A DNA stretch of 58,665 bases, the filler included, from Dugesia japonica (taxonomy: Eukaryota), in assembly GCA_001938525.1 (NCBI GenBank). It is 5 parts of 5 records of this genome, joined end to end, with 100 filler letters (N's around TTAATTAATTAA, not from the genome) between each part and the next. Parts side by side here need not be neighbours in the genome. Positions count along the whole stretch, not along the records: positions 46,942 to 58,665 come from MQRL01586495.1; 4 more parts are not named here. The stretch is one strand, 5' to 3'. Made by a program: the position numbers and the translations under genes. Each line of letters starts with the position of its first letter. Positions within the stretch are counted from its first letter, which is position 1. The notes beneath the pieces are model-generated. The model made no database searches and was not told the origin of the DNA. It saw only the letters and a program-made list of their open reading frames with translations. Below are positions 9,381 through 58,665 of the stretch, piece after piece.

Positions 9381-9480
9381 NNNNNNNNNNNNNNNNNNNN
9401 NNNNNNNNNNNNNNNNNNNNNNNNTTAATTAATTAANNNNNNNNNNNNNNNNNNNNNNNNNNNNNNNNNNNNNNNNNNNN
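9381..9480. other. Artificial scaffold-joining spacer
   Basis: N44 + TTAATTAATTAA (stops in all six frames) + N44. Confidence 0.97.
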
Positions 9481-10519: not shown

Positions 10520-12800
10520 ACTGTTGTCACTATTATATTTTATTAAAAGGTTTTCAAAATCTAGTAAATTACAAACTTAACGGCAAATATGTTGAGACGT
10601 ATTTAAATGTAGAATGTTAAGATGAAAGAATTTTCTGAAATAAAGAGTTTACGAGAGAGAAAGTTCAATCAAAATTGTTGATTGGGATATAAATCAATAT
10701 TGTATTACTATTAAAGAATTATTAGCTATTTATACCTTTGTTATGAAGTTCAAATATTATCTAATTTGTAAGCGATTCATAGTGTGAAAAGACAATCAAG
10801 TGTTAAAAAGGATGCTCAACTTGGATAGTCTGAATACACCTCATTATTGTATTTGGAGAGCAGAGCTAGAAGTATTTGAAATGATAGTAGAATTTCGAAA
10901 GGGTAAAGAACACAGAAATACAGCTGTTTTATNTAAATTATAGTAACAATGCATGAACAAACATTTCAAACCTCAAAAGAAACAAAAAATCAAGGTAGAT
11001 CTCATAGAATTAAATAGGGAACAGAATCAATTCACTTAAAAAAGGCTTTCAACAATATAAAAAATCACAATAATAAATGACAACAGGAAAATGATCCAAA
11101 TATCAAATTAATACTTAAAGTGTTGTGATATTGGTCTTTTATAAAAATGTATTTTTTTAAATTTGTGTGCCATAATTATATGTATATAAATACATTCATG
11201 TATGTGTGCATATACTTTTAAAAAAACATACTTTCTATAATAGAAATTATTATAGAGAAATATGAGTCAATAATAATTATTGACACAATTAAAAGTTAAT
11301 TAAAAATTACAATTCAAAATAAAACTTGGCAACGGCTGAAAATAGAACAAATTAAATAACCAGATAATTGGCAACCGCCAAATGAAAAATAAAAAAAGAA
11401 ATTTAAGAATTTAAATGTAATTATGAGACTCAATTAAAGAATTCTCGGCAAGGGCCAAAACAACAAATTTAAATTGAAATAACAATTGTAATTTGAAATN
11501 NNNNNNNNNNNNNNNNNNNNNNNNNNNNNNNNNNNNNNNNNNNNNNNNNNNNNNNNNNNNNNNNNNNNNNNNNNNNNNNNNNNNNNNNNATTTAGTTCTT
11601 TTGTTAATAAAACTTGTTAAATCATTATTAATCTTGTTAAATATTTTTATATATTTTTATTTGGTGTAATTGTAAAATAAATTATCTAACACAGCATATA
11701 CCCCAGGTTTCCCTCAATATTTTCTCTGGTGACTCTATTTGAGGCCTACAAAATTTCTCCACAAGTAAAATAATAGTTACAATAATAAATAAAACTTAAT
11801 AACTAAATAGAAAATAAAGAGAACATTTATAGAAAAGGAATTAATCAATGATCTAAATATCAAATTAATACTTAAAGCGTTAAAAGAAGGTTACAATAAG
11901 ATAAAAAAAACTGAAGAAACAAACGAAGCAAAAATATACTAGGAAAAGAAGTAACAATTAAGAATACAAGGAGAATTTTTTATTTTGGAGAAAAATAACG
12001 ACCACCTTTTGGTAGTACCCAAATTTAAAAGGGAAAAGATTACATGAAAAGACTTTAAGTTATTGGGTCACACTGGAGCGGAAAAAACTGCAGAAGTTTT
12101 ACAAAGAGAATATTATTGACCCTCATTGTCAAAAGATATGCGAGATATTATTACTAATTGTAATTCATGTAACCCCAAAAAGTATCTGATTGGTAGGATT
12201 AAAACACGATTAGAAAACATCACGGAATACAAACTATTTTAGTTTATAGAAATATATATTACAGGACCATTTAAACAAATAAAGGAAGGTAAATAAATAT
12301 ATACTGGGTATAATAGATTATTTTTCAAAGTTTTCAATTTGATTTAAGAATAACATCATCCGAAGTTATCTGTGAAGCCTTATGGGTAAATTGGATATTC
12401 AAATTCGGGAAACCTGAAACAATCCATTAAAATAGTGGACGTAATATTTGGTCTAGATTGTTCCAGGAATATTTAAGAATATTGAGAATATGAAAAATAT
12501 TTACGTTGCCGTACTACTCTCAAAACGACAAGTTGGTAGAAAGACTATTTAAAACATTGAAGCTCACGATAAGCGCAGTTATGGAAGACAGAGAAATCCA
12601 AAACTAGAGCTCAAAATTACCTAAAATAGAAGGCGACATTCAAAATACAATACAGAAAATAACCAGATATTCAGCATATGAAATCCTGTTTGAAAGAAGA
12701 CCGAAAATTAACTTATGGAATATTATAAACACTAAAAATAACAAACCGAACTTTAAAAAATACGTGGAAAACATGAAGCAAAAAATAAAGATAATACATA
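10520..12800 (+). mobile_element. Heavily decayed Ty3/Gypsy pol (RNase H to integrase)
   Basis: About 12065-12170 reads GHTGAEKTAEVLQREYY*PSLSKDMRDIITNCNSC (integrase zinc finger), followed by ITGPF, GIIDYFSK, WIFKFGKPETIH and LVERLFKTLK. Many stops and frameshifts. The left boundary is approximate. Confidence 0.85.
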
Positions 12801-13329: not shown

Positions 13330-15350
13330 AAAATTTCTTAAATCCTTCTATGTTCAAATTTTTAAGTACTCACATTTCTTTCGATTTCTTTCCCATGCTT
13401 TTATTTTTAAATAATTGTGTGTCATAAATTTGCTTGAAGACTCTGTATAGTCCTTCAAGTCTTTCTTGACTTTTTTTGCGTTTCTCCTTTATTGACGCAT
13501 CTTCTTCCACATAAATTTTTCAGTGTTTGTTCTTCTAGTTTTTATCTGTATTTCTTTGGACCGATACTGTCTTTCTCTGTAGAANNNNNNNNNNNNNNNN
13601 NNNNNNNNNNNNNNNNNNNNNNNNNNNNNNNNNNNNNNNNNNNNNNNNNNNNNNNNNNNNNNNNNNNNNNNNNNNNNNNNNNNNNNNNNNNNNNNNNNNN
13701 NNNNNNNNNNNNNNNNNNNNNNNNNNNNNNNNNNNNNNNNNNNNNNNNNNNNNNNNNNNNNNNCTAACTTCTTTGGGAATTCTTTGATTATCCCTGATTC
13801 CAATGCCTTCCAACAATTTGCTTTCTATTCTTTTGTGCAGTCATATCTCAAAATTCATTTTTCGAAAATCGTTTTTTATTGTTTTCGAATTTTGTTTTTC
13901 TATGGCTATTAATATTTGATACCTACTAAACTGGTCTATTATGCCTTGTAGGTACTTTTTCGTTCTTTTGTTTCTTGCATAAGTTCACATACGTCCATAA
14001 TTTCAAACATTTTAGTCGATTGGAGTTATTTTTACAAGTTTTTTTGTCGTTGCTGTTGCAACCTTGTTTTATTGACATATCTTACATTTTCTAACAATTT
14101 CCTTAATTTGACTTCAAAGATTTGTTCCCATAGACATGTATTTTATATAATTAACAATTTTCTTTATTATTCCTTTCTAAACTTAGGAAAACATAGAATA
14201 AGTNTCATTGTGAGTGCTATCCTCAATCCCTCGAACACATTATTTGTTTCTTTAATTCAAATCTTTTGTTACCAGGACATCTACACAAATGTTCTAACAC
14301 TCAGAATTTCTTTTTATAATTCCTAATGAATTTTTTGAAGTAATTTAAATCCCTAAATGCTTTGAAGAATACTTTCAAANNNNNNNNNNNNNNNNNNNNN
14401 NNNNNNNNNNNNNNNNNNNNNNNNNNNNNNNNNNNNNNNNNNNNNNNNNNNNNNNNNNNNNNNNNNNNNNNNNNNNNNNNNNNNNNNNNNNNNNNNNNNN
14501 NNNNNNNNNNNNNNNNNNNNNNNNNNNNNNNNNNNNNNNNNNNNNNNNNNNNNNNNNNNNNNNNNNNNNNNNNNNNNNNNNNNNNNNNNNNNNNNNNNNN
14601 NNNNNNNNNNNNNNNNNNNNNNNNNNNNNNNNNNNNNNNNNNNNNNNNNNNCTAGTGCTGCGGAAACTTCCAAACTGCATTTTAGTTGAACAAAATTGTC
14701 TGTTCTTATTTGAGAAAGCTGTTTTCTTCTGTGATTCTTCATTGAGTTTTAACTGATAATACGCATTGAGCTCTTTTCTACATAATTGTTTTGAAAGGAA
14801 TGCAGAATTTGTCTCATAATATAGGAAATAGTTTTCTATTAGTTGTGCTTTTCATTGTTTTAATTTATTTGCTGTTATAAATTTGTACAAATTATTTATT
14901 TTTTTCATTACAACTGTCACATTATACTGTCTCTTTTATAATAGTGATGATATTTTTTCTCTGACATAATTTTCAAGAACGGAAGCATTTCATAGTTTGA
15001 TGATTTTTAAAGCTTTTGATAAATATTTGAATAGATTATTCTTGTTAATCAGCCTAGATCAGGTTTAAAATAGCAATATGTTGGAATTATTGTATCAAGA
15101 ATGTATGTTTCTGGACATATTAATTTGTTCGTTGGTTTCTAACATAGATGTTCTAAAATTATTGGTTGTTTCATTCTGTACATTACTTGTGAAATACATT
15201 TACAATTTTTATTTGTTTTTATTTTTTCGAGATTTTGTGGAGTTAAAGATAATTCTATGGTACTATCAGTCATTTTTCTTTTACTAAAAACTCTTCTTCT
15301 TTGAGATTGGTTTTGGTGAATTTAGTGCTGACCAAAAACGCTTTTTTCAT
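13330..15350 (-). mobile_element. Second decayed Ty3/Gypsy pol, opposite strand
   Basis: Minus-strand fragments in RT-RH-IN order: NEESQKKTAFS (about 14740-14712), KMQFG, ILCFPKF (about 14200-14178), KKYLQGIIDQFSR (about 13960-13922), IPKEV and ERQYRS. Interrupted by N gaps. Confidence 0.7.
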
Positions 15351-15872: not shown

Positions 15873-16615
15873 TCAAGCTGGGCTTGGTGATTTTACTAAA
15901 CCAATATGTTTTCCTAATTTTAATGCTCGCTGTCGTAACATATCTTGAATCAATTGAAAACACATAGACAAAAGCACTAGTCCAAAGAACAAATATATTG
16001 CACAAATAATCGGCTTGCTCTCATTTTTCCATTGGGAATTCAATAAACCCGGGACTAAATCACCGAAACCAATTGTAGAGAATGTTATAAACACAAAATA
16101 ACAACTATTTAAGTACACCCAATTTTCCCAAAAACTGATTAACAAAGCGCCAACTAAAATATAAACAATAAATACACTCAATGGTAAAATTAATGGCAAT
16201 TCGCATTCGTCTTTACGATGAAGATTGTTCATAAAATCTCCAGTATCAATCGAAATAGTAAAATGAAGTTTTTTCTGCTTTTCTTCACTAGATTCCGTGA
16301 TTCGAGAGAGATTTGTTGAACCACTTGAAAGTAATAATAGATTTTTACCGATTAATTTATTATTCGGTACTGTAAATGATTTACTATCGTACTGGGATTG
16401 AGTTTCAGTTAATGATATTACCGATGCAGTTTTTGTCATCTGTCGTCTTCGACATTTCATCCGATTTCTTAAGCATTTATAAAATATTTTAAAGCCTTTT
16501 CCAAATAAAGAACCAAGATTAGTAAGACATAAAACCATCAGTGGTATTCCAAACATCGCATAAATAATTGTAGCTATTTTACCGTTATTAGTTTGCGGAA
16601 CAATATTCCCATATC
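15873..16615 (-). CDS. Terminal exon of a two-pore-domain (K2P/TWK-type) potassium channel
   Basis: Acceptor TTTCAG|GA splits the Gly codon that begins G-Y-G-N-I-V-P. M2 is IIYAMFGIPLMVL, the second pore is YFVFITFSTIGFGDLVPG, and M4 is IYLFFGLVLLSMCFQLIQ. Upstream exons were not found. Confidence 0.95.
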
Positions 16616-17444
16616 CTGAAATAAAAAGATCATGTAATTTACTTGTCGTTTTAAGCATGTTTCAATGATGACAACTAACAAAAAAATAATTAAAATTCGA
16701 TTATCTATTATCTATTATACAGAGTCTGTACGCTAATAATAACCTCACTTAATGAACCAAAATTTTTACTGGTTAGTCCAAATTGCCAAAAACATTGACT
16801 TAGCATTCATTCTCAATATAACAATAGAAATACTTCAACCATCCAGACACTGTTCATAAACTCAACTCTCTAGCTTATTTGCGAGATCTCCACACCTTCT
16901 TATCTATCCTCGAAATAAATTTTTGTTTCGTTTTATTAGCAATAAGAAATTTTTCTATTTCTTTCAAGTCTTCACAAAGGATTCACTTATTTTCTATTAA
17001 TCTATTTCCTTCTTTTTTTGCATAGCTTATAATTTAAATGCAGTGCTAAAGAATTTTATAGTATATTTGATTCAGAGGAAAAAGTATTAATGGTATAGTT
17101 AACTATTCTAAAATTCTTGAAATTATTAANGATTTATCATTGAAATTTCAATTTATTATAGTAAATATTTAAATTTATTTAAATATTATTAATATAATAA
17201 AATAATTACTACTTCCATTTCAAAATTTTAGTAGATATAATTAAGAAAACTAATATATTATTAATGAATATGATTCGCATAAATATTATTTTTGTAATTA
17301 TAAAATGAACAAGAGCCGCGGTTAATAGTCCAGAGAATACGGTAATTGAAGATTAATCAGAAACATTGAATTAAAACGTGTTTAAAACNNNNNNNNNNNN
17401 NNNNNNNNNNNNNNNNNNNNNNNNNNTTGTTAGTTAATTTTACA

Positions 17445-22631: not shown

Positions 22632-22731
22632 NNNNNNNNNNNNNNNNNNNNNNNNNNNNNNNNNNNNNNNNNNNNTTAATTAATTAANNNNNNNNNNNNN
22701 NNNNNNNNNNNNNNNNNNNNNNNNNNNNNNN
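22632..22731. other. Artificial scaffold-joining spacer
   Basis: N44 + TTAATTAATTAA + N44. Confidence 0.97.
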
Positions 22732-23225: not shown

Positions 23226-23717
23226 ATGATTTCTAATAGTAATTACAAAGAGAAAGTTTCCAAAGAGATTATAAGTAAAATGAAATTTTCAATTGGAAAA
23301 CCTTCACAATTTGTTGACAAAGGTGGTTAATATACAGTCATATTCTTTAAAACCGGAAATTGTCGAATAATGGGCTTGAAAAAACCTATAGAAATGGAAA
23401 ATTTACAGTATGATATTAAATATATTCAGTTGCAATCGTTAACAATCGTAATCAATTTGGGACTTTCGATTTATTTATATAAATTGGTAAAGATAACAAA
23501 ATGTTGGTTTGAACCAGAATTGTTTCCAGTATTGTGTCTTACAAAATATGATCCTATATGTGTTAATGTATTTTCATCAGGAAAAGGCGTCATACTTGGT
23601 TTCAAGAATTTACATTATCATGGATATGTTGACAACATAAATACATATTTATATAATTTAATAGATAAAATGCAATACGAATGCAATCCTGTTTCAACAA
23701 CCAATTTAAATAGTTGA
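23226..23717 (+). pseudogene. Compact, intronless, divergent TATA-binding-protein-like gene with one in-frame stop
   Basis: ATG 23226 is in frame with ORF 23370, with TAA at 23328. Repeat 1 is TVIFFKTGNCRIMGLK (cf. TBP TALIFSSGKMVCTGAK). Repeat 2 is WFEPELFPVL...CVNVFSSGKGVILG (cf. YEPELFPGL...LLIFVSGKVVLTG). Confidence 0.8.
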
Positions 23718-31800: not shown

Positions 31801-31813
31801 TATACTATAAAAA

Positions 31814-32479
31814 ATGAGTGAAGAGAAAAAAGTTGAAGTTAAAAAGGTTCTTTATCAAGCTAATTCAGCAGATTTATCTTTAGCATGTGTAACAAATATA
31901 ATGAATAATTTTAGTAGTTTTAAAAATTTAGATATAAATGAATTAATAGATTTATCAAAATGTGAAGGAACAAAAGAAATAGCAATACCAAAATTAGAGG
32001 CACTTAAACAATCTTATGAATTAATAGAAAAATTAGATGTTAATCAAAAAACTAAAAATTTCATTAAAGCAATTTCATCTCATTATATGGTTAAAGTTAC
32101 AAAAGATGAATGTAAAAGTTTATCGTTAGATCTTCTTGAAAAGAATTTTAACGAAGCTCTTGAACTTGCTGAATTTTATGAAAAAAAATTTACTGAAGCG
32201 CAAGAAGCTCATAACATAACTTTAAAGAAATATAATGAAACTCGAGTAAAAGTAAAACAACCAAGAATGGTTGAGTTTGACAATTATCTAATGAAATATA
32301 ATCCTGCAGAAAGAGAAGGAAAAAGAAATTATGTAAAGAATGAAGATATTACTAAATTACAACAAAAAATAATTAATGATAAAGAAGGAATTTTAAAACT
32401 TTATAAAAATAGATATAGTAAAGTACCCACAAAGGGAAGTGATTCTATTGCCAATGCTCATGTTAAATTAAAACAATAA
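31814..32479 (+). CDS. Hypothetical helical/coiled-coil protein of the Polinton-like element
   Basis: Intact 221-aa ORF in very AT-rich DNA. AAAATG start context, and the next ORF starts 2 nt after the stop. No family recognised. Confidence 0.7.
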   Translation: MSEEKKVEVKKVLYQANSADLSLACVTNIMNNFSSFKNLDINELIDLSKCEGTKEIAIPKLEALKQSYELIEKLDVNQKTKNFIKAISSHYMVKVTKDECKSLSLDLLEKNFNEALELAEFYEKKFTEAQEAHNITLKKYNETRVKVKQPRMVEFDNYLMKYNPAEREGKRNYVKNEDITKLQQKIINDKEGILKLYKNRYSKVPTKGSDSIANAHVKLKQ

Positions 32480-32481
32480 AA

Positions 32482-32748
32482 ATGGATACAGTTTTATATA
32501 AAATGTTAAGTGAATATAATTTTAAAGAAAACTCTATACAAAACTTTTGTAAAGTTAATAATGTTAATGAGAAAACTATTAAAAAATATTTAAAGAAATG
32601 GAACATTGAATATAACACTAGATCATGGGATCCATCTAGAAATTTACAAAGAAATTCACATGGAAGTTTTATTTCTTTAATTGATAGATTTGAAAAACAA
32701 CACCCAATTAAAAAATCAAATAATGGTAAAATTAATTATGAACAATAA
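32482..32748 (+). CDS. Small putative helix-turn-helix protein
   Basis: SIQNFCKVNNVNEKTIKKYLKKW fits an HTH pattern; identified by eye only. Confidence 0.5.
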   Translation: MDTVLYKMLSEYNFKENSIQNFCKVNNVNEKTIKKYLKKWNIEYNTRSWDPSRNLQRNSHGSFISLIDRFEKQHPIKKSNNGKINYEQ

Positions 32749-32954
32749 AATAAAGAGATTAAAAATATTAATGTAAAAAATAGTGGTGATAATAATTATG
32801 ATGATTTATTTTTAGAGTTGAAAAAAATATGTATGCAGTAACGTATTGTTTTATAGTACTGTTTATAGTTGTGATTTAGTACTGTTTATAGTTGTGATTT
32901 AGTAATACAACCTACAATAAAATATAACACTCTATTAAATTTTACATCTAATAA

Positions 32955-34254
32955 ATGATTACAATGTTAGATTTAGACAATAATATTGAATTTTCACATA
33001 CAGCGGTTAAAAATGATACATTAGTAATATCACCATCAGCAGGAACATTAAGTAAATTAAATTCAAGTGGAGACATAGTATTTCAATCTCTCCAATCTAC
33101 AAATCCACTTGATATCTGTAATTCATTATTATACTTTNNNNNNNNNNNNNNNNNNNNNNNNNNNNNNNNNNNNNNNNNNNNNNNNNNTTAGAAAATAACT
33201 TCTTTCCAAGTTTATTTAATTCATTAAGATTATTTTTAGGTTCATCTGAAATTGAATCAATTAATGATCCAGGTGTAATAAGTACAATGTTAAATTTTAT
33301 ATTTTCAACTGAAACAATAAAAAGGAATATGGACAATTATCAGGTTTGATGCCAGATATAAATAATGGAGATACAGATGTAAAAAATAATGGATATCAAA
33401 TTAGAATGAAACTTTATAACTCAGGTAAATTTGAAGGTTACTTTCCATTAAAAAACTTATTTGGATTCATGCAAAATTATAACAGACTTTTATATAATAC
33501 AGCAATAGAACTTAGATGTAATAGACAAATTGAAAATAATTTATTATGTTATGGTGATAAAGATGCAAAAGCTACTTTAGAATTAGATGCACTAGAATTT
33601 CACATACCAGAAGTAAGATTATTACCTAAAACAGAATTAATAATGTTAGAAAGAATATCAACAGAGAAATCAATTAAAGTTTCATATTTAAACAGAATAT
33701 GTGGTAAAACTAATTTAGAAGTCGGTCCTTTTTATTCAATTAAAATTGGTAGTTTAGCATATCAACCTAGATATATTTTAATTTGTTTTAAATCACCAAA
33801 TTCTTCATTAGAAACTAATGATAATCTATTTATACAGAAAGTTACAATAACTACAAAAGTCGAAGCAAAAGATGTACCAAAATCTAATTATCTTAAAGGT
33901 TTACAATTACAATTAAATAATACTAACTATCCAGCTAATGAATTAAAATTTGATATGTCTAAAAATGAAATGGCTCATCCTTATTTAAATTATATAAATT
34001 GTTGTCATGACTTTTTCATTGAACCACAATTATCATTATTAGATTTTGGTAATTTATATCCACTATTTTGTTTTGATACAANNNNNNNNNNNNNNNNNNN
34101 NNNNNNNNNNNNNNNNNNNNNNNNNNNNNNNNNNNNNNNNNNNNNNNNNNNNNNNNNNNNNNNNNNNNNNNNNNNNGAAGAAAAACATGTAGAGATGAAA
34201 CTTGCTAATAGTAAAGTTGTTATGATAGAAAATGTTAAAGGTCAAGATATTTAA
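32955..34254 (+). pseudogene. Double-jelly-roll major capsid protein (Polinton-type), with a frameshift near 33330 and N gaps
   Basis: LNSSGDIVF, NNFFPSLFNSLRLFLGSSEIESINDPG, FPLKNLFGFMQNYNRLL, PRYILICF, LNNTNYP and YPLFCFD are motifs typical of Polinton capsids. Confidence 0.8.
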
Positions 34255-34272
34255 TTATTTCCTCTTAAATAA

Positions 34273-35560
34273 ATGTCCTCTAAAAATAATTTTATATGTG
34301 ACAATTGTGGTAAAATTATTTTAAAAAAGAATAAATCCAGACATTTAGATTTATGTATAAATAGTGTAAAGCAAACTAAATCAAGTTTTATTAGAAAAGG
34401 TTTTAAAACCAATTACAACAGAAAAATATCCAGGTGAAAGACATTTATTTAAATATAATTACACTGGTCCTGGAACTAGATTAGATATTAGACTTGATGA
34501 AAATAATAATCCTAAATCTGGTGAAGAACCAATTAATAAAGTTGATGAATCTGCATTAAAACATGATATTGCTTATAATTCAGAAGATCTTAGAGATAGA
34601 CATATTGCTGATGTTAATTTAATACATGATCTAAATAATATCCCAAACCCAACATTAACAGAAAAGTTTCAAAGAGCTCTTGTAAAATTAGCTATGAAAG
34701 GTAAAATAATGATTGGTAAAGGTGGAACTAAAAAAGATCCATTTAAGAAAAGTACAATTATAAAAGATGAATCTGAAGATGAAACTAATGATAAAGAAAT
34801 ATTAAGTAAAGAACTACATAAAGAATATAGAAAACCTAAACATTTTAGAAAAGTAATTGTTTATGAAAAAGATGATATTTGGTCTGCTGATTTAATATTT
34901 CAAGGTATTGAATGTAAAGGTAAAAATGTAATACTAACATTTATAGATCTTTACACTAGATATGCATTTGTTGAACTTTAAAAAAGTAAGACTGGACAAG
35001 AAACAACAAAATCATTTGAAAGAATTTTAACTAAAAGTTTTAGAACTCCAAATAAATTATGGACTGATGAAGGATTAGAATTTTATAATTCATCATTTAA
35101 ATCTTTCTGTAAAAAAATGACATTCTTTTATATTCAACATTAAATCAAGGTAAAGCAGTTGTTATTGAAAGATTTAATCGCACATTTAAAAATAATCTCT
35201 TTCAACATTTTACTGCCGTTGGAAATCAAGATATCAATATTAAGTTATTAGAACAAATTGTTGATGATTACAATAACACAATACATTCATCAATTAATGT
35301 TACACCTCAACAAGCAACAAATAATCCAGAAAGTATTGAAATTGAAATACCAAAAGATTACAATCAAAATCTAAAATTTAAAATTGGTGATAGAGTTAGA
35401 ACTACTAAAATTGGAAAAACATTTCCTAAAGGTTATACATTTAAATGGACAAAAAGAATTTATGTTATTACTAAAATTTATCATGAACAACCTATAACAT
35501 TTCAAATCTCAAATCTTAACGGCAACAAAATATTGGGAAGATTATATAGTAATTACAAAA
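34273..35560 (+). pseudogene. Zinc finger / parvovirus-type phospholipase A2 / DDE integrase gene
   Basis: 34273: CDNC-x11-H-x3-C finger. The frame open from 34370 reads YNYTGPGT...PINKVDESALKHDIAY...RHIAD (PLA2) and runs without a stop into WSADL, TFIDLYTRYAF. After a stop at 34979 and a frameshift near 35115 it continues LWTDEGLEF, VIERFNRTFK, YNNTIHSSI and KFKIGDRVR (Maverick-type integrase). Confidence 0.9.
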
Positions 35561-35611
35561 AACTTCTTTATAAATTGTTAAATGTAAGATGTAAAATTTT
35601 ACATATAGAAA

Positions 35612-35830
35612 ATGGAAGATTTTAATAATTATTATCTTAATATTAATGATGATATTCAAGTAAAAGAATTAGAAGAAAAAATAGAAAATAAGAAAATAGA
35701 AATCTATAATTACAATTGTGAAATAAAAAAACAACATGCTATGAATGAATTAGAAGGATTATATGTAGATATGGAACAATTGATACATAATTTAACTTAC
35801 ACCCAATATTTATTAGATAAATATAAATGA
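35612..35830 (+). CDS. Small hypothetical coiled-coil ORF
   Basis: 72-aa ORF preceded by the shared upstream motif. Confidence 0.5.
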   Translation: MEDFNNYYLNINDDIQVKELEEKIENKKIEIYNYNCEIKKQHAMNELEGLYVDMEQLIHNLTYTQYLLDKYK

Positions 35831-36523: not shown

Positions 36524-36623
36524 NNNNNNNNNNNNNNNNNNNNNNNNNNNNNNNNNNNNNNNNNNNNTTAATTAATTAANNNNNNNNNNNNNNNNNNNNN
36601 NNNNNNNNNNNNNNNNNNNNNNN
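36524..36623. other. Artificial scaffold-joining spacer
   Basis: N44 + TTAATTAATTAA + N44. Confidence 0.97.
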
Positions 36624-41730: not shown

Positions 41731-42184
41731 CGTTAATCAGTCTAACGATTCTCCATAGTAAGAAGATTACCATCACAGAAATCTGATCTGAGTTCAACTG
41801 GACAAAAATTATATCAGCCATAAATGAAGTGACAATGATGGTTCCATCAAAAATCTTTAAATAAAAAAAATTAATAATTAATTTTTTTATTATCATGAAC
41901 AATTATTTTCACTTCTACTTTCTTTTTGAAAAACCTTTCACCAATAGACACAACTCTCATTATCAGTTCTATCATAAAAACCACCAATATTGCAATACTG
42001 ATGTAATGTAGATACAATCCAATATTGTGAAGAACAGTGGACCTATGTAAACTGTATTCTGAATTTGTTTTATGATCGGATGAATACGAATCTTTATGGT
42101 TATCATCAAGCTTGTCAGAATCTTGATGTGACCATTTCTTTGTAGTATGGAATGAAGTATTACACAACTGTAAAAGGATACTTT
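41731..42184 (-). CDS. HVCN1: Two exons (42184-41913, 41854-41731) of a voltage-gated proton channel (Hv/HVCN1 family), S1-S2 loop to S4
   Basis: LHYISIAILVVFMIELIMRV...FFKKKVE|IFDGTIIVTSFMADI...LLWRIVRLING matches Hv1 FHYMSITILVFFMMEIIFK...[22 protein letters not shown]...RLWRVARIING. The 58-nt GT-AG intron keeps the frame. The S1 and C-terminal exons were not located. Confidence 0.88.
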
Positions 42185-42299
42185 CTACAAATAATTTGTA
42201 TATTAATGTTGATTTACAATTTTTAAAATTATTAAAAGACAAATAAAATGAGAAATAAATGTATAATTATTAAATATTAAAAATTGAATTATTGATCAA

Positions 42300-46841: not shown

Positions 46842-46941
46842 NNNNNNNNNNNNNNNNNNNNNNNNNNNNNNNNNNNNNNNNNNNNTTAATTAATTAANNN
46901 NNNNNNNNNNNNNNNNNNNNNNNNNNNNNNNNNNNNNNNNN
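46842..46941. other. Artificial scaffold-joining spacer
   Basis: N44 + TTAATTAATTAA + N44. Confidence 0.97.
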
Positions 46942-48429
46942 TTCTAGTTGTAAGATTTTAATATGTTTTACAACACTTGAAACTAAATATCTTTTATAAA
47001 TCGATTTGGGTTTTAATTAATTTAGATTTTGTAACAATATCCTACTAACAATCATTGAAATTAATAAAAAGATTTGATATTCTTCATTTTAAAACTACAC
47101 CTGTGAATACTTATATTTTATTTTCAAAAACTTTTGATTTTATAAATGTGTAATTTACTGTTGACAAAATAAAGTTCTCATTTGTTGTAAATATGAAAAG
47201 GAGTATATTATTTGCTTTATTATTAATTAGCTTTATCTTTATTTATATTTATTTAATCTTAAAACTTGGTAACGTCAAAGATTTATAAATTACGAAATTA
47301 TTTATGAAAATAGTAGGTGGTAAGCTAGGAAATCAACGGATGATATGAAAATAAGACTATTATAAGAAATTAGTAAATTGAAAGTAATATGAAAACCGGG
47401 TAAAATCAGGAAGTAAAATCGATAAAATTTATTATTTTATATTTTCAGAGATCATGTCGAGATATCCACGAAAATCATCACAGAGCTTACAACCAGGAAG
47501 ATAAACTACAGGAAGATACTATAAAGGAATATAAATTAAAGGAAGATAATCAGGAAGAAAATTAAGGAAGCTAATCAGGAAGAAAATTTCAGGAAGATAT
47601 TAGGAAGAATATTCAGTCATACTTATTACGGATGCAGTTATGGGAAATAGGGATCCCCAACTGGTAAGCTACAATCAGAAGATTGATCACCTTTGTAGAA
47701 AGTAACCGCAGCAGTTGTCTAATGACTATAACTGAAGAAGTAATTGGGTATTATTGGATTTGTGATATAATTTAGAAAGCCTGCGTATGGGAGGGAAAAC
47801 CTCGGAAGATATTAACGGAAGCCTGCACAAGGAAGGAAGATACGTGAAGTCCTAAGCACATTAACCAGTATGTTAAAGGAAGGCCACGTAATTAAGCACA
47901 CTAAAAGAAGCCTGATTAGAGGAAGAATTAAAGGAAGCCGGAAGCGTTTGCCTGCACGAAAAGAGTATTCCAAACGGGGCCGCCGATCCCTCAGAAAGCT
48001 CTCGGTACTCCCCCAGGAAGAATTATTAAAAGTGTGCATTGTNNNNNNNNNNNNNNNNNNNNNNNNNNNNNNNNNNNNNNNNNNNNNNNNNNAAACGGGG
48101 CCGCCGATCCCTCAGAAAGCTCTCGGTACTCCCCCAGGAAGAATTATTAAAAGTGTGCATTGTTACACCGGCATATCAAAAGGAAGAAAAGGAAGAAAGC
48201 CAGAAGAGTTCGCCTATACTACAGAAAAATGGGTACTCCTACATTTAGGAAGAGATAACCTGGCGTTAATTAGAAAAAAAGGAAGTATTACAGGAAGATT
48301 AAAGGAAAGCTTAATTAAGGAAAACGGAAAAAGAGAAAATTTAAGGAAGATGGTTGTGGGGCTATGATGACAAGTATAGAGCAGCATGGTATTAAAGTAA
48401 GTTTAAAAAAACAGGAAGAGGAGTAATTG

Positions 48430-48923
48430 TCTCCTAAATAAAGACAATTAGAAGTAAATTTTACTAATTTTACTAATCGGAAACAGCAAATGGGAGAAAC
48501 CCCACAAGCATATATGAAGGAACTTAAGAGGCGTGGTAAATTGGCCTTAAGAGACAAGCTGGCAGATAGTCAAGTACTCGCTATCTTTTTAAACGGAATA
48601 CGAGACGAGAATGCCAAACTAATGGTAACACTGAGTAAGCCCGTGACACTACAGGATGCTCTGTCCACGTTGTGAATTGTAGTCGATAGACCGTCGGAAC
48701 GAATATTTAAAGTAGAGGGACAAACAGAAGAAACTACACCACGAATATCAGATTTCATACCTAATACACAATCAATGAGGAAAACCCTGACCCCAGGGCA
48801 AGAACGGAACAACCTAAATGATAGATCTAATTATCCCAGAGGGAATGGTGGAGGATTCAATGCACTTGGAATAATTGGCAAAATAATCGAGATATACAAT
48901 GCAATACCTGTGGAAGAAGGGGA
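48430..48923 (+). pseudogene. gag: gag (capsid C-terminal region and start of the zinc knuckle)
   Basis: RKQQMGETPQAYMKELKR...AIFLNGIRD...KPVTLQDAL, then IQCNTCGRRG at 48894-48923 running into an N gap. Confidence 0.85.
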
Positions 48924-49139
48924 NNNNNNNNNNNNNNNNNNNNNNNNNNNNNNNNNNNNNNNNNNNNNNNNNNNNNNNNNNNNNNNNNNNNNNNNNNNNN
49001 NNNNNNNNNNNNNNNNNNNNNNNNNNNNNNNNNNNNNNNNNNNNNNNNNNNNNNNNNNNNNNNNNNNNNNNCAAAAGAATGTCAAAACGGGAATCAAACA
49101 AATTATAATCGGAATCCGAATACAAATCTGGATAATCTA

Positions 49140-52100
49140 ATGCAAGAAAATGAAAGATTAAGACAACGAGTAAATCAAAACAAGGGACAAGTCAATTTAG
49201 TACATCAAAATACTTTCGACAATGTGTATCACAAGGTGCAACAGGAAAACGATTGGCTCAAGTGGCAAAACCAAGACTTGCAGGTACAGCAGGAGAGACT
49301 GGCCAAAAGGAACTTGTTAAACGAACCACATAAGAATCAGTGTAATATGGTTAGGACACACAGGCAGATTTATAATCAACATGACGAAACAATAGAAGTC
49401 ACCAAAACGGAAGATACGCGAAAACGAATATTTATCACGTCACCGGAATTCGAGTGGACCGAAGAGATCATCTATAAAACAATAAAAACGTCAGTAACAA
49501 CCACCGGTAGAAGAAGAGTGATGAACCAGTTACTTCAATTATATCAGCACCCACAAGTACACGCAAAGGTAAAAGCTAACTGGCAAAAAACAATATCGGA
49601 TTATATCGCCGAGCTGTATAAAGAAACCCAGTTAGACGATTATGAGTTTGAAATTCAATATGTATGGCATAACAACCCGGAAGTCATTTTAAAACGGCTA
49701 AAATTACACCTAAAAAGTACGACACTTGAAAGGAGCACTTAGCGAAATAAAATGGGATAAAGTAAACCCGTCCCTCGAATCACCACCATTTAACGAGCAG
49801 CAGCAATGGAATGGGAAGTGGATTAAGCACCGATTGCAACTAGGGAATATAGGAATCAATATTCTTCCCGATGACAAGAACCTAATTTATTACGGGGCAC
49901 GACCTCATGAAACTACAGTAATCAAATTGATAAATTGGGATTTGGTATCCCGAGCATAAATGGTAATCCAAGAAATAGAAACAGACGAGTTATATCATAA
50001 TCTCGAAGAAACATTCCTAAAGAAAATAGTTCCCCTCCAGGCTCAAAACTACATGCGTAAAAGATTGGGAAAAATAAGGCTAATAGACTATCCAGAATTG
50101 GAACAAGCCGAAGCGTCACGGTTATCCTTAGCCCGAATTGATGAGATACAGGTAGCAGCTCAGAAACTCCATGATACGATAAAGAAAGAAGTATACCTAA
50201 AGTTGACAAATCAATTGGTTGAATTATTGGAAGTTATACAACTGATCACCGAGTGCGAAAGCGATTGGACAGAATGGTTACCAGTGCATTATGAGTGGGT
50301 AATATCCAACATGGGATTATCAGATTACCAAGTATGGCTATATAACCCGGAAGGAAATATGAAACTGACGCTCACAAGATTAATGGTAGAGGATCTAGAA
50401 GCGGCGTTTAATCAAGCCGGTTATCCATGCATAACCGATAAATATGTATGCACTCCAAGTGCTATCGTAGATTTTAATGCCGGAAAGAAACATCTATATG
50501 ATTTTGGAGTAAAACCAGGAGAGGACATTGAAATCGTAGTATTGGACAAACACCATGGTATCAACTACGACATCTGGATAACAAAATCCGGACGATCAGC
50601 TTTAGAAATCATGGGAGAAATGGAGTATCTATATAAACAAGGGGTAGAGCCGATTAAAATCAAAATAATTTCCACTGTACTCGGGAAGAAGGATAAACTG
50701 ACAAAGGAGGAGAGGAAGCAGTTATTAATGACGCATAATGATTTTCTCAAACAACGATTAGAGAGAAGAGAAGGCAATTGCAACATGATAAGAATGTGGC
50801 AAATGCCATCAAGAGAAGTGGTAGCAATGCGAAAAGTGGAAGAAATGGTTCACCGAGTACAGATAGAGAGGGAGAAGTTCCCTCAAGAGACCTATTGGAT
50901 GATAATGAATAGAATCTACGACATATATGACGGACTAGAAATACCGGAGGAAATCGAGAACCAGTCGCTCATGATTAAACAAAAGTATGCCGAAGAAATA
51001 TTGGCGACTACAAAAATTCAAGATTATAAATTATATTTAAATATCGGGGAAAATGAACAGGAAGTGACTAAATATAGTCGATTTAAACCACAAGGAATAA
51101 CCATGATGGATTTAANNNNNNNNNNNNNNNNNNNNNNNNNNNNNNNNNNNNNNNNNNNNNNNNNNNNNNNNNNNNNNNNNNNNNNNGTTGAGACCGACGA
51201 CGAGGACAAACACATATTTCAATGCCACGCAAAGCCCGGAGAAATATGTGAGTTAGATATAGACGAGGAGCCGCGGACGGATCAATCACCGGATCTCAAG
51301 GAGCAAATGGAAGAGATAACAGAACTATACGTATCCGAAGTATTGTCCGGCATAAAGGAACACGTAAAAGAAAGTCAGAAAATACAGAATATTGATAACT
51401 TGCCAATAACCACCACCAAATCAGTTGTATTTCCGGAAGGGACGCCAACAATACGCGATATTGGGGTGAACTACACAAAACCGATAACCGAGGAATCCGC
51501 TACGTTTCACGCTATCAACAACCTATTAAGAGTAACACGAGAAACTCGACCAGTCGTGAATATCAAAGTATATTGGAAGATGACGAATAACTTACGGAAT
51601 TTGGCAATCTATGGACAACTCAGCTTGTGGGCTCAAGCACAATGGTGGAAAGAGATAACCTTATACGAAGATGAAGTACAAAATACATCCACCATATCCG
51701 ACTATTCTATTAGAGTCAGCCTCCTTAATAAAAAGGGAAGCATAAAAAAGGTAGATATGATAACGCTGGAAGGATTAACGGTCAACCATATCATAAAACC
51801 AATCAAGAAATGGCTATGGCCAAAATCGCTCAAGTCTTATAAAATGGAGGCAGGAGCAACAATGATCATATTAGCAGAGAAGGAGGATCACATCTTCTTA
51901 CATGATATCAAACCAGGAGAGATCACAGAAATAAAATTAACACCACGTAAAATGACCATCGACATCCCGATACCAAAAACACCGGATACCGACCAACTCA
52001 TATTCAATATGATGAGCCTATATCTACAAGAAATACTACCAGTAGAGAATGAACGACTTATAAACACTTATGGAGAAAACAAAGTCCAGGTAAACATGGT

Positions 52101-54650
52101 TCGGGATAATGACCATGACACCACAGATCTAACATCAGATGAAGAGGAGCTGGAGGAAGAAATCTCGGAGGATATTGGCCAACCCCGGTTGTTACCATTT
52201 AAACATAAATTCGCTGGTCCTTTCAGCTCCCATCAGGCAGAGCAGATATCGAAGATAATATCTGATTTCTGTAATTTCCAGGAAAGTATACCTAGGGCAG
52301 CATTTTGGAAAGCATTAAATTTACTAATGGATCTGGCAAAATATACTGAAATAGCAAAGGAAGAATGTGCCAAATAGGAGTCAGTAATCAAGTTGTATGT
52401 TGGTGCAGTGAAAACAAGTGCCAGAGGAGAAGACTTTCAAGTCACGATATCTGAGGAAAGAACCAGAATTGGCTGTCATTCACATACCACATTGAGATTT
52501 ACTATAAAGTTTGAAGGAAAACAACATTTAATGGACGCAGGATTGAGACTCGGAGAAAATACATTTCTTCAAATACAGAAACCAGAGGATTGCATCCCAG
52601 GACCATTAAAATCTATGAAGGAAGTAATACAGCAACTAGAGGAGTTGTACGAACAAGAAATCAACAATGATAAGTTATTTGAAGAAGTCAACAATAGAAC
52701 AATGGAGATAAATATTGAGTTATGGGAAGACAGTAAAACATGAGGAAGTCTGGCGCGAGTAATAATGAAAATACTCTTAACCTTGGAAGAAAACTTGGAA
52801 CTATTAAGACATGACAAAGTCATTCAATTAGTTCTAAAGCTAAATCAATTACGAGCTATAAGTCAAATGCCTGAAGACATAATGGATGCAATATTAAATA
52901 AAGCAGTTCGAATGATAACCAATGAAGCCGTCACGGTAACAATCAGATTTCCCGACGAAAGTGAAATTCGTTGGCAGGTCCAAATGAACGAACCATGGGC
53001 TAAGTTGCAGAAGAAGATTGTAAAATTTATGAATCAACAACGTAGCCTTAACGAGGAGAAAACTAGAGTGCAAACATCAGTTCAGGAAGACGACATAGTA
53101 CTCTATTACAACCACGTAATAGAATCAGACCAAATGAGATTGCCAGTAAAATATATGGGGGTTTGACCAGGTACTAAATTAAAATTTTATGTAACATCAA
53201 GGGAGGAGAAGAGACGACGCCTACGGGTCTCGGAGGAAAAATGAAAGCAGGAAGCTAGGGAATTAGTGGAATATTACATAGAAGAAATAAATCCATTAAT
53301 ATTCACTAGAGCCAAGCTCCCTAAACAAGAGCAAAATAAACAACGAGTAGAGATGGTAGCAGCTCCGACTAACACCCCGGTCAAAGACGAGAAACCGGAA
53401 GACAATATACCGAAATTGTTTGAATTACTGGTAGGCGATAAGTTAATAAAACCGGAAATCATACGACGATGCAATATAGCCTTACAACAAGATCTAGCCG
53501 TAGAAGATCTTAGAAAATTGCGACGAGTAATACTAGCCATCAAAGTAGCACATGTATGAGATCCAGTTCAGTTCAGTAAGATTCCGGTTAAATGGCGGAA
53601 AGCAGAGATGGGCCAGACCACGCCATTAGAAGTCAAATTCAGAATAATCGATCCAGAGGGGGATAAAGTCACAATTAGGATACCAGTATATAATACAATC
53701 AAGCACCTACGGGATAAGCTACCATTTAAGCCACCATACAAACTCTTGGGTGAAGATGGAATAGTGGAAGATACCACTCCGATTGAACTGATGAAAATAG
53801 ATTTAGTTAAACCTAATACGTTGTGGATTTTTCCCGAATTGGGAGGTACTCTCACTCGTAAAGACGCAGATCCTTTTGAAGCAGTAGATAAAACCAGACC
53901 AATAATGGGAGAGGCCTCAGGTATGTTAAAAGCATATAAACACCGCACATAACTAGCGGCTAGTCAAATATTAAGACCTACAACCGATCAATCAGGAAGT
54001 GCAGAAGCATCCCGAGAAACTAAAGAAACTCCTAAAACAAGCCAAGATTGGGATCATTGAAACAAAAACGATTAACGACATCCATAAATCATCAAACTAA
54101 GCGATTAGCAACGGTATCACAAGAGAGATACCACGAAAAATCGACAGATGATGACATACCAACCGAATTAGTAATACGGCAGTTACTGCTAATGTTGTAT
54201 CCGGAATTAAAAATATGGATTGGGAAATTTCAACTATCAGATAATCTCAGACCACTGGCAAAGAAATAGAAGCAGCCATTAAGAAATTCCCTGCCATTAA
54301 AGGTACTAGTCTTTGTACCAGAGATAATTTTGAAGGAGTCATGGACGAATTATTACAAGATCAGCCAGCCAAGGATAGTAGTATCCATAACACATCTGAT
54401 TAATCAAACACATCTATCAATCGCAAGAAGCAAGCCGTCAAAAAATTTCATTCTAGGTAAACTACCAATAGTGGATCTAATGCAGAACAAGATAGTGCCG
54501 TTAATAAAACAGCATGGGGGATGGAAAAAGTTCATTGAGGCTATATGCCCTAAACCTCAGCCATCTCATGAAAATGCAACTAGAGTAATCAGGATTGTCC
54601 GGGATCAGTTAAATGAGATCGAGAATGGATGGACACGCGGGCCCCGCCAA
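49140..54650 (+). pseudogene. Accessory polyprotein region: ubiquitin/SUMO-like repeats, possible CARD-like domains, Bcl-2-like domain
   Basis: ORFs from 49726 to 53952 share one reading frame and are separated only by stop codons. Repeated DY...KPGE units, a UBL ending LWIFPELGG, and IKQHGGWKKF. Confidence 0.65.
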
Positions 54651-54656
54651 AATTCA

Positions 54657-55100
54657 TGGCAAGCGTTAACCACTACAATACTCTTGTTATTCTTAATGAT
54701 GGGCAGAGGTGAAGCCATACTAGCATACGATTGCGATGGAATGCAAGTTGGGAAAGAGGTATTCTCATTAGTGGATACAGAGGAATGTCCAGATGCAAAC
54801 CCGGAAAATATCTCACTCCGTAACAATTCCATTTATCATCTATATCAGGAGTCAGATTATTATAAGGCCCAAATACGCGAATGTACGGTAACGGTAAAAA
54901 CGTTCATATTTCATTGCGGATAACATAGTTATACATCAATAATCGACCCAAAAACGGTGAGACATCCGGTACATTAGCAATGGCGGTTACAAACCCCGAT
55001 AGTGTCACTTCACTACTCCCGTTGGAAAAAGGACAATTCGGTCGAGTGGTCGGAGAAGTAATGTACCTATACAAATGCAAAGCCATAGATGCTGAGTTCT
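54657..55100 (+). pseudogene. env: Internally deleted chuvirus-type envelope glycoprotein
   Basis: Signal peptide TTTILLLFLMMGRGEA, then ILAYDC...FSLVDTEEC...HLYQ...ECTVTVKTFIFHCG*HS. In another frame: LAMAVTNPD...GQFGRVVGEVMYLYKCKAID. Confidence 0.75.
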
Positions 55101-55379
55101 CGTCTAAAAGGAGAAAGCACACCAGCACCAGTACAAATGTATTATAACGCCTATCCGCAGCATGGTTGGCCACCCATGAACCAACAACCCTAACAAGTAT
55201 GGGCACCAGGTCCCATGTACAACAATCCGTATATAAGCCCGCCACAAGCCCCGAATATGGCGCTATTAACAGGAAGCAATATATCAATTATGGACCGAAG
55301 AGTAATCGAGCAAAACTTGCGCGCTCCAAATAACCCAATTACTGAGTATGATAAGTTAGAAACACAGACTGTATGTATG

Positions 55380-55730
55380 ATGATTTCCCAGAAAGCAAAA
55401 TTATTACAGAAAAGGATAAAGATCGACGGAAGATGGGTAATAGCTATTATCGATACAGGAGCAAGTACAACGCTAGTCCAAAAAAGAAAATTAGAAGATT
55501 ATCGACTACTTAGAATAACAATAACTAAAGGAGTTATCATCACTGCCTCCGGAGAAAAAATCTCACCCTAGGGAGAAGCAATATGCGCAATAGAAAGCAA
55601 CGGAACCCGGCTCTGGCATAAACTGCAAATAATGAACGAATTAACATTCGACTGTCTATTGGGGTTGGACCTCTTGTCACGCCTTTGTCCGGAGGGAATA
55701 TTGGATTTGAGAGAACTAACGATACGGGAA
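55380..55730 (+). pseudogene. First retropepsin-like aspartic protease
   Basis: IKIDGRWVIAIIDTGASTTLV...ITASGEKI and FDCLLGLDLL, with one in-frame stop at 55569. Confidence 0.88.
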
Positions 55731-56027
55731 AATTACGATCAGGAGTATGCCCCGGTAGGGTATCAGAGAACTCGAATAATAACCAAACAGAAACGACCAC
55801 AACACTGGAATCAGCCAACACCCAACCGGCTGCAGCAACGCTCAACGGGCCGAAACGAACAAAATAACTCGAATCAAGATTGTCGGAAAATCACTCATAC
55901 AGCCACCATGATAAGGGACGATTGGATAAGGTTTCAAGAACGAGAACCAAGATGAAAAAACCAATCAAAATCAAACCCCAGTCATAACCCTTCAGATGTA
56001 GTATGCACAAGCCTCAACGGCGGACCA

Positions 56028-58573
56028 ATGCTAACCATTATGGTTAAAATAAACGGCCGACACATAACAGCCCTATTGGACACAGGAGCAACCAAATCGT
56101 TGCTGCCAATAGATGAAATTGCGATAACCGATTACAAAAACATATTACCTACGAACACTATAGTGGATGTGGCAAATGGTAGTAGCCTCAAGATTTTTGG
56201 AGAATTAGCCTGTGAAGTCGAATATCAGGATAACAAAATTAAACACAATATGATCATAGTAAAAATGATGGAACAGTGTATACTAGGAACAGACATTCTT
56301 CCCGTCCTGATGAAAAACGTTATATTAAACTTCTCAACATTACGGTTACAATCATTGGAGGGGTATGCCCATGTGAAAGATCAGGAAGTATTCACCACAG
56401 AAAAAATCTTGGTGCCTAGTAGATGTCAAGTATATTGTGTAGTCAGTACCAAAAGTGCATATAAAGGAGATTGTTATTTCGAACCGTATGACGGATTTGC
56501 ACACCAGTACGAGCTACCCACAGCAGGAGGAATAACCACGGTCAACAAAAGTGGGGAAGTACCAGTTAGTTTGATCAACTTCACGGAAAAAGATATCAAA
56601 ATCAAACCTAACTCTAGGATGGGTACACTAACCCCCATCGAACCAGAGCCCGACGGGATAGAAGAAGTAGTCGCTGAACCGGAAATCGACAGAACGTTTA
56701 AAGTAGAGACGGAAACTTTGTCGGAGGGTCAGAAACAAGCAATACTGCAACTGCTGGAGGAATTTAGAGACATTTTTGCATGGACTGATGAAAATTTGGG
56801 TATGTGCACAGCGACAAGGCACACAATTCCACTAACAGACGAAACGCCATGCAAACAGAAGCCATATGCCATGACGGTAGAGAAAAAAGAGTTTGCAAAT
56901 AAGGAAACGGCCAAATTAGTAAAAATTGGGGAAATAGAACCTAGCTGCTCACCGTGGCAGTCACCAGTGGTAATGGTCGATAAAAAAGATGGGACACAGC
57001 GATTCTGTATCAATTACAGAAGACTGAATGCCCAGACTAAGAAAGACACTTATCAATTGCCAGATATCAATGAACTATTGCAACTGTTGTGTAACGCTAA
57101 AATATTTATCACGCTGGATTTGCGAAGCGGTTACTGGCAAATAGAAATCAAACCAGAAGATAGAAAGAAAACCGCCTTTTCTACAGGCAAAATTTGTATC
57201 AGTTCATCCGTATGCCATTCGGACTTACTAATGCACCAGCCTCATTCCAACGAATGATGAATTACGTAACTCACGGCATATCTCAATGTATAGCCTATAT
57301 CGATGATATACTAATCTTTTTGCCAACCTTTGAAGGGCACCTAAATGACTTGCGTAGTGTGTTTGTACGATTACGTAAAAGGAATCTAAAAGTGAAACCC
57401 ACCAAATGCGAATGGGCCAAGAATAAAGTAACATATTTAGGTCATTTAATATCGGATAAAGGAAAAGAGCCCGATCCACGAAATACCGAGAAGATACGAA
57501 ATCTAGCACCGCCAAATTGCGTGCTCAAAATACAAGAATTTCTCGGTCTCGCGAACTATTATCGATAATTCATTAAGGATTTCACTAAAATTGCGAAGCC
57601 GATGCAGGAACTGGTCAAACAAGATACTGCCTTTATATGGGGGCTGGAACAACAACAGTCATTTGAAACATTACGAGACAAATTATTAACTGCACCAATT
57701 CTGGTACACCCAGATTTCAAGAAGCCATTTATATTAGCCACTGACGCTAGTGGATACGCGATGGGTGCAGTTTTGAGCCAACTAGATGAACAAGGAAGAG
57801 AACGAGTAATTGCATATTTTAGCAAGAAATTTTAAGGAGCAGATTTAAATTACAGCACAACAGAACGAGAGATAATGGCTATTGTGAAAGCCACTAAACA
57901 TTTTCGATCACTTATACATGGTCACGAGGTGGTAATCTATACGGACCACTTACCAATTACGTTCATGGCGCAGAAACCATTACGATGGAATAGAATGGCC
58001 AAGTGGTAACTGGCAATGCAGGATTATTGTCCTCTGTTAAAGTTTAAAACGGGTAAAGCAAACTCAAATGCTGACTGCCTGTCCAGAATCGGTGGACCGG
58101 AAACTACGGAGAATGCACCAGAAAGTACAGAAACGTTCATATTGCTAGAATTATAGGAGAAAAAAGTAGGAATGGTATATTTCATACTAGCGGAAGATAG
58201 AAATTTTGATGGACTAAAGCAAGCACAGGCTGATGATGATGAGATAAAGATCATTATGAAATACATGGAAAATTACAATTTAGAAAAGTTAGAATGTGAA
58301 CTTAAGATGAAGGAACACCTAAAGAAAAATGGTGGTTGGTATGCACTTACCAAAGGATGGTTGACAGTGTTAGCTATCACTAAAGCAAGGCGGGATAAAA
58401 TACTTGAACAATATAACAATGGAGTACTCGTTGGACACATGTCTCACAAGAAAACCGAATTCAAGTTAAGACAGAAATATTACTGGCCACATATGACGGA
58501 ATCTGTGAAGGAATGGATTGATAAATGCCAAATATGTGCTGCCAGGAGAGAAACGGGCTTTCCTCTTGATTGA
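56028..58573 (+). pseudogene. pol: pol: second protease, RT, RNase H and integrase zinc finger (disrupted, truncated)
   Basis: ALLDTGATKS...CILGTDIL; SPWQSPVVMVDKKDG, LDLRSGYWQI, RMPFGLTNAPASFQR, YIDDILI; ATDASGYAMGAVLSQ; GHMSHKKT...YYWPHM...CQIC. Several frameshifts and stops; the integrase core is absent. Confidence 0.97.
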
Positions 58574-58665
58574 TAAAGGTACTCAGACAAGCCGCTCCTG
58601 AGTTATCATATCTACTAATTTGTTGCCTTTAATAAATTATTTTGTTTGCATCTTCTATAATTTGT

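Follow-up and report, generated by a model that had tools for sequence, protein, structure and literature searches.

What fills the several kilobases of coding DNA between gag and pol in a large Ty3/Gypsy element of Dugesia japonica, and might it act on the host? The window analyzed here, 58,665 nucleotides of assembly GCA_001938525.1, is built from five scaffolds with N-TTAATTAATTAA-N linkers in between; the element lies on the last one (MQRL01586495.1, positions 46942-58665), which is fragmented and has three N gaps inside the element. A first-pass annotation had read, between a gag knuckle and a first protease about 6 kb downstream, ubiquitin-like repeats, possible CARD-like helices, a Bcl-2-like domain and a viral glycoprotein, and had proposed a potentially infectious element coding for its own modulators of apoptosis and ubiquitination. 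As described below, the locus is very probably a dead copy of a multi-copy Ty3/Gypsy retroelement with the Burro-like order gag-cargo-env-pol, whose intact form would have been one polyprotein of roughly 4,300-4,700 aa, an estimate obtained from about 3,400 visible codons plus the missing env and integrase parts, added by size only.

Organization of the element

By Pfam, PDB and frame analysis, positions 48427-58575 (plus strand) are a decayed Ty3/Gypsy element, in which a gag knuckle, about 5.4 kb of cargo, an env remnant, two aspartic proteases (PR), a dUTPase-like domain, reverse transcriptase (RT), RNase H and an integrase zinc finger follow one another (Table 1). The distance from knuckle to first protease is confirmed, at about 6.5 kb.

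Table 1. Features of the element and of its 5' region (Ubl, ubiquitin-like)
Positions	Strand	Feature	Support and remarks
47292-48400	+	High-copy 5' region	Likely LTR or 5' UTR; boundaries inferred from depth jump
47494-47613		AGGAAG-type tandem repeats	Within high-copy 5' region
48427-48675	+	Gag capsid-like C-terminal part, with stops	Mainly by position
48900-48923	+	Start of CCHC zinc knuckle	Read from sequence; N gap 48924-49071 cuts the knuckle
49140-53952	+	Cargo, about 1,600 codons	Coiled coil, helical segments, up to seven candidate Ubl units; frameshift near 49720
50314-50553	+	Repeat unit U1, candidate Ubl	Related to U1b, U2, U2b (shuffle p 0.001-0.002)
51010-51264	+	Repeat unit U1b, candidate Ubl	p 0.001-0.002 to U1/U2; N gap 51116-51186 inside
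51694-51951	+	Repeat unit U2, candidate Ubl	p 0.001 to U1 and U1b
52372-52587, 52918-53205	+	Two more candidate Ubl units	Weak; helical segment between
53617-53847	+	U4, ubiquitin/SUMO-like unit	Best supported; di-glycine at end
54144-54560	+	Likely Bcl-2-like domain, BH2-like end	One stop, possibly local frameshifts
54660-54725	+	Hydrophobic segment, likely internal env signal peptide	Hydropathy peak 1.54 at 54666
54714-55102	+	Env remnant, class III mononegavirus/gB-type	Two pieces in two frames, two internal deletions, C-terminal anchor missing
55416-55670	+	Aspartic protease 1 (DTG)	Pfam gag-asp_proteas; one stop
56037-56315	+	Aspartic protease 2 (DTG)	Pfam E 7.6e-8; PDB retroviral-like proteases
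56442-56621	+	dUTPase-like domain	PF00692 E 0.0016, below cut-off; PDB dUTPases E 3.6e-4
56853-58080	+	RT and RNase H	Pfam, PDB, tree; frameshift near 57190, stops
58379-58575	+	Integrase H2C2 zinc domain	Pfam E 2e-16; copy ends here

Both long frames noted in the first pass hold. Positions 49726-53949 can be read in a single frame of 1,408 codons interrupted by 6 stops, while the remaining two frames carry 10-28 stops per 600 nt, and the ORFs from 54048 to 57257 share a second frame, a single env piece (54974-55102) sitting in the third. The giant gag-cargo-env-pol frame is interrupted in the window copy, with 16 stops and at least 5 frameshifts in seven inferred coding segments; long shared frames persist, and in the relatives described below the frame is open. 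The element ends at about 58575, with neither integrase core nor 3' LTR, and most alignments to relatives terminate at 58555-58567. Its GC content is 37-40%, against 19% in the flank. Rfam and tRNA scans of the scaffold gave no matches.

Assignment to Ty3/Gypsy (Metaviridae) follows from the order PR-RT-RNase H-IN, IN being represented by its zinc domain only, and from an RT closest to Ty3/gypsy: the best PDB matches are 4ol8 and the Ty3 Gag-Pol entry 7q5b (E 1e-25 to 1e-24). An RT/RNase H tree of the window and its relatives (138 rows after near-duplicates and short matches were dropped; quick search without bootstrap) places the window, on a long branch (0.8), in a 12-row set with 10 of the 11 env-bearing rows and the protein P0004 (SH-aLRT 98); the remaining env-bearing row, P0192, falls just outside this set. 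Kinship with Burro was judged by domain order.

The window copy is dead: it carries stops and frameshifts, has lost about 500 aa of env including the anchor, and has no integrase core. The suggestion that it is potentially infectious fails for this copy, where env is internally deleted and devoid of its anchor and the integrase core is absent.

Env remnant and relatives with open frames

The viral glycoprotein was correctly recognized, as a remnant only, of about 130 out of about 620 aa and without a membrane anchor. It matches PF24664 (Monjiviricetes_fusion) with E 1.2e-11 and 43.7 bits, against a cut-off of 27, over profile positions 5-87 and 348-392 of 653. Ten relatives, in all of which env is continuous, align to the window over these same two blocks, for instance at residues 1291-1370 and 1637-1674 of P0123; because the relatives align in these two blocks only, about 500 of the about 620 residues must be missing. 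The lost part includes the hydrophobic anchor, which lies about 550 residues after the signal peptide in the relatives, and no hydrophobic segment was found after 54975; what the window copy retains between the Bcl-2-like region and the protease is an env without intact ectodomain and anchor. The relatives show a matching hydropathy peak directly before env. In an IMG/VR scan with the env piece, none of 111 candidates was confirmed.

Relatives were reached from the PR-RT frame, which retrieved P0003, a protein with env tail, PR and RT in one frame. Cluster look-up led to P0123, 3,735 aa long, in which capsid, knuckles, full env, two proteases, RT, RNase H and integrase share one frame. The P0123 search gave 146 matches among 2,116 candidates; among the matches listed, 12 were picked by precomputed domains and scanned, and PF24664 was present in 11 of them. 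In 11 proteins of 2,293-4,057 aa (P0123-P0132 and P0192), PF24664 lies upstream of PR-RT-RNase H-IN in a single frame, so that, as first proposed, the ancestor of the window copy likely encoded a single giant polyprotein in which gag and pol flanked env.

P0123-P0132 and P0136 are unnamed ENA/JGI polyproteins and share the layout of the window: a single frame running gag-knuckles-helical bundle and Ubl-(Bcl-2-like)-env-PR-PR or ankyrin-dUTPase-like-RT-RNase H-IN. Their RT/RNase H is 48-51% identical to that of the window. Between knuckles and env, these proteins have a cargo of about 450-900 aa that includes one or two Ubls, and the window has one of about 1,800 codons; moreover, in contrast to the window copy, their env is whole and the chain continues past the integrase. 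P0136 features gag, a Bcl-2 match (E 0.0015) just before env, env and PR, and P0124 a ubiquitin match (E 4e-5).

A JGI metagenome scan with P0003 found 80 loci, mostly RT-only as judged by match ranges. Near-identical members of P0123-P0132, P0136 and P0183 recur on 12-18 kb metagenome contigs, in clusters of up to 21. Additional modules in several of these proteins are a third protease, ankyrins, C2H2 fingers or, past the integrase, a membrane-anchored extension; several have an AT-hook-like motif ahead of the Bcl-2-like region or env.

Gag and the cargo region

The gag part is assigned mostly from its location: the capsid-like stretch has no Pfam match and aligns weakly to the gag of P0123 and P0124 (tblastn E 0.37 and 0.18), while the context of the knuckle is similar to that of the relatives' knuckles. 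For the cargo no homologue was detected. No match to 50356-53949 was found by phmmer among 1.84 billion representative proteins, and none of 1,721 candidates among proteins of 2,474-5,000 aa was a homologue of the cargo read-through; Pfam gave no match over the whole read-through, and a PDB sequence search nothing but one nanobody (E 1.4).

Of the ubiquitin-like repeats claimed for this region, the internal repetition is borne out by the pairwise alignments (Table 1), while outside support for a ubiquitin-like identity was obtained for U4 only. The KPGE motif occurs three times, which happened in none of 20,000 shuffles; yet some 4-mer was threefold in 161 of 1,000 shuffles, and the case for repeats therefore rests on the pairwise alignments. 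Compared with 13 Ubls of the relatives, U1 is not significantly similar (p 0.19), while p is 0.003 for U1b, 0.01 for U2, and 0.01 and 0.06 for the two further units, in order of position. In Atlas, U4 matched ubiquitin and Rad60-SLD clusters at 0.90, which we consider lead level, and its hhalign score of 20.7 exceeds the shuffled maximum of 14.9; U2 matched no ubiquitin, the best hit, unnamed, being at 0.77. An alignment of four window units had no ubiquitin match in PDB, and one of the four has a di-glycine. Ubiquitin-like calls in the window copy are accordingly weak, one unit of up to seven candidates being supported; a Ubi/SUMO-like motif upstream of the Bcl-2-like region, seen here at lead level in U4, is solid in the relatives by Pfam and fold searches.

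The CARD-like helices found no support in either Pfam or PDB. In a relative, the helical module was modelled as about four helices in 65 aa, against the six helices and about 90 aa of a death fold; a profile of the relatives' helical region had no match above null in the cargo. A TFIIS-N-like identity, considered for the helical bundles, was dropped, as Pfam gave no support.

A likely Bcl-2-like domain

Judging from its alignments, the region between cargo and env is likely Bcl-2-like. It aligns with residues 1182-1254 of P0136 (pairwise E 1e-5), which are the Pfam Bcl-2 stretch of that protein (E 5e-4 to 1.5e-3, below cut-off), and a profile of the relatives scores 9.2 bits on it, against a null maximum of 6.0. 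The earlier assignment holds to the extent of this alignment, and not as a direct Pfam or PDB match, none being obtained for the window region. The Bcl-2 fold was recovered neither in a PDB profile search nor when the P0136 model was put through four fold searches, whose matches were filled by the Ubl and hardly probed Bcl-2 or the helical bundle; a single-sequence AF2 model of 54036-54920 had a pLDDT of 36. Local frameshifts within the domain were considered but are not established, the preference for them being only about 2 bits (18.3 versus 16.4 and 16.0).

Comparison with known elements

That the novelty of the element would depend on comparison with Burro was a sound expectation, the layout being already published (PMC6431247). 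In the accessible text of that report, Burro, a group of giant Gypsy-like LTR retrotransposons of planarians, has a Gag with knuckles, Ubi2/SUMO-like and BCL2 motifs, an in-frame mononegavirus-like env between gag and pol, and a dUTPase between PR and RT; it is proposed to meddle with apoptosis and ubiquitination, and decayed Burro copies with stops and frameshifts are described in D. japonica (PMC6431247). Since domain order and proposal are both given there, most novelty is removed. Burro/GYPSM1 is described with the order gag-Ubl-BCL2-env-PR-dUTPase-RT, followed by RNase H and IN, and with a high copy number. Likened by description only, the window agrees with it in copy number and in order, its Ubl being at lead level, its Bcl-2-like part likely, and its dUTPase-like domain between PR and RT below the Pfam cut-off. 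Among the motifs given for Burro1/GYPSM1 in the accessible description, BIR, MATH/TRAF and ankyrin had no Pfam match in the window; for this reason we call the element Burro-like and not Burro1. BURRO1 and BURRO4 are, according to the part available of PMC8532177, under PIWI control.

Elements with GAG-ENV-POL order and a gB-type env are known in Platyhelminthes, Nematoda and Bryozoa, and for most of them transmission is said to be elusive (PMC13524379, accessible text). Smed_errantivirus_1-6, HSV/gB-type elements described there, resemble the window in having a Ty3/gypsy pol and, between GAG and POL, an env of gB/class III type. Over the stretch compared, the start of the window env is identical to none of the six, and it shares 20/42 and 19/42 residues (45-48%, counted by eye) with Smed_errantivirus_1 and _2, respectively; the six are intact, in 1-215 copies, whereas the window copy is dead. 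The terms "Bcl" and "ubiquitin" have no matches in the accessible main text of PMC13524379, where the cargo is not described.

The window thus contains a new decayed member of the Burro-like elements, kinship with the clade being by description. Apparent differences from the elements described, as far as the available accounts go, are a cargo about twice as long as that of the relatives, repeated Ubl-like units (up to seven candidates, against one motif named for Burro in PMC6431247) and tandem proteases, of which the Burro description there makes no mention. The literature searched held no further description, and an account of Burro2-4 may already cover this family. In these terms, the window brings a divergent family to the Burro-type retroelements, which have been little studied, and shows that cargo length and repeat number vary among them.

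Possible functions of the cargo

Modulation of the host by the cargo, as we infer it, would proceed as follows. The internal signal peptide would insert the polyprotein into the ER membrane, where cleavage by host signal peptidase would set the class III fusion protein free on the lumenal side. Through the env anchor the chain would pass back to the cytosol, and there the element's proteases would release RT, RNase H and integrase. The env signal peptide, starting about 35 codons past the BH2-like motif, would remain attached to the C-terminus of the Bcl-2-like domain upstream and tie it to the membrane, in the way that cellular Bcl-2 proteins are held by a tail anchor. So tethered, the domain would be able to postpone the death of the cell that makes the element. 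The Ubl-like units would bind components of the ubiquitin system or act as decoys for it (U4, with its di-glycine, being alternatively a cleavage signal). Stem or germ cells nearby would receive the genome in enveloped particles, on the model of Drosophila errantiviruses. In its full form this reading, put forward tentatively and on the whole unlikely, would make the family a distinct Burro-like lineage with a cargo amplified to up to seven diverged Ubl-like units of no detectable family, an env signal peptide acting as the tail of a Bcl-2-like death inhibitor, and intact enveloped members, elsewhere in the genome, actively keeping infected stem cells alive.

Alternatively, the cargo may serve the processing or assembly of the element itself, the Ubl units being deubiquitinase cleavage signals or spacers and the Bcl-2-like part a membrane adaptor; we regard this as doubtful, yet a serious possibility. 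Pestivirus polyproteins carry ubiquitin inserts cut by host deubiquitinases, and fragments of the bovine viral diarrhea virus polyprotein are indeed among the fold matches of a relative's Ubl; a di-glycine ends both U4 and the Ubl of P0136, and four env-bearing relatives (P0126, P0127, P0130 and P0131) seem by eye to have no Bcl-2-like part. However, the di-glycine is found in just one of ten aligned relatives and one of four window units, and the element has two proteases already.

As to host modulation, a role in apoptosis and ubiquitination was suggested in print as early as 2019; the literature searched contained no experiment that tests the suggestion on Burro-type elements. The intact natural relatives offer clean domains for testing; the window copy, a fossil, adds little.

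Copy number and state of the family

Low-depth contigs cover 46942-47291 and stop there, where the summed depth of run X1 jumps from 31 to 86,000-140,000 and GC content from 19%, in the flank, to 37%. On checking for an LTR pair and a primer-binding site, this 5' high-copy segment was found to have no partner, the element ending at about 58575. Within it, 47974-48042 and 48093-48163 are near-identical and flank a 50-N gap, likely an assembly duplication.

The cargo plainly belongs to a multi-copy family. In each of four public DNA runs all 30 bins of the scaffold were covered. Depth per bin, which does not equal copy number, is 3,982-31,561 in the cargo and 9,861-74,458 in pol, two cargo bins being about five times below their neighbours. 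Altogether 26,184 run X1 contigs were placed on the stretch: 1,785 are at least 99% identical, 5,203 are at 95-99%, 12,389 at 90-95% and 6,807 below 90%. The ends of the stretch are overrun by only 8 of them.

As most contigs are 90-95% alike, the family is suggested to be old, and the two env deletions, which take about 500 aa including the anchor, might be common to most copies; the lineage would then be non-infectious and env-decayed, spreading intracellularly or mobilised by intact relatives. This we hold to be unlikely, if by no means negligible: the many private-looking lesions and the 3' cut imply that the deletions may be the window copy's own, and full env is kept in all ten close relatives. 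The 32 contig pieces seen in detail, out of about 69,500, are too few to judge whether the deletion junctions are bridged.

That the cargo instead reflects nested insertion, or unrelated repeats wrongly joined in short-read assembly, is very improbable: the fragmented scaffold with its three N gaps, the cargo's want of homologues and the two bins of low depth would agree with it, but the element keeps to one strand, to an A-rich composition of about 39% GC throughout and to long shared frames, the relatives have modules of like kind in the corresponding position, and thousands of public-run contigs lie across the whole cargo, in every bin, one of them spanning the cargo/Bcl-2 junction (53783-54053).

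Other features of the window

The five scaffolds of the window are unrelated and are separated by four artificial N44-TTAATTAATTAA-N44 linkers (9381-9480, 22632-22731, 36524-36623 and 46842-46941). A Polinton/Maverick-like cluster at 31811-35625 (+) features a double jelly-roll capsid (PF21738, E 1e-15), a phospholipase A2-like ORF (PF08398) and integrase-like pieces. The same scaffold carries, at 23331-23717 (+), a divergent single-frame TATA-binding-protein-like ORF (PF00352, E 1e-8), possibly of mobile-element or viral origin. Exons with WD40 and RCC1 repeats at 2383-9436 (+), presumably of a HERC-type host gene, are accompanied by a hAT transposase remnant (6965-7402). A potassium channel exon (PF07885, two stretches) lies at 15873-16661 (-), and an exon at 41871-42266 (-), with no Pfam match, reads like a voltage-sensor or proton channel. 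Further decayed Gypsy fragments, of RNase H, integrase and RT, are found on another scaffold, at 10698-12595 (+) and 14669-14767 (-).
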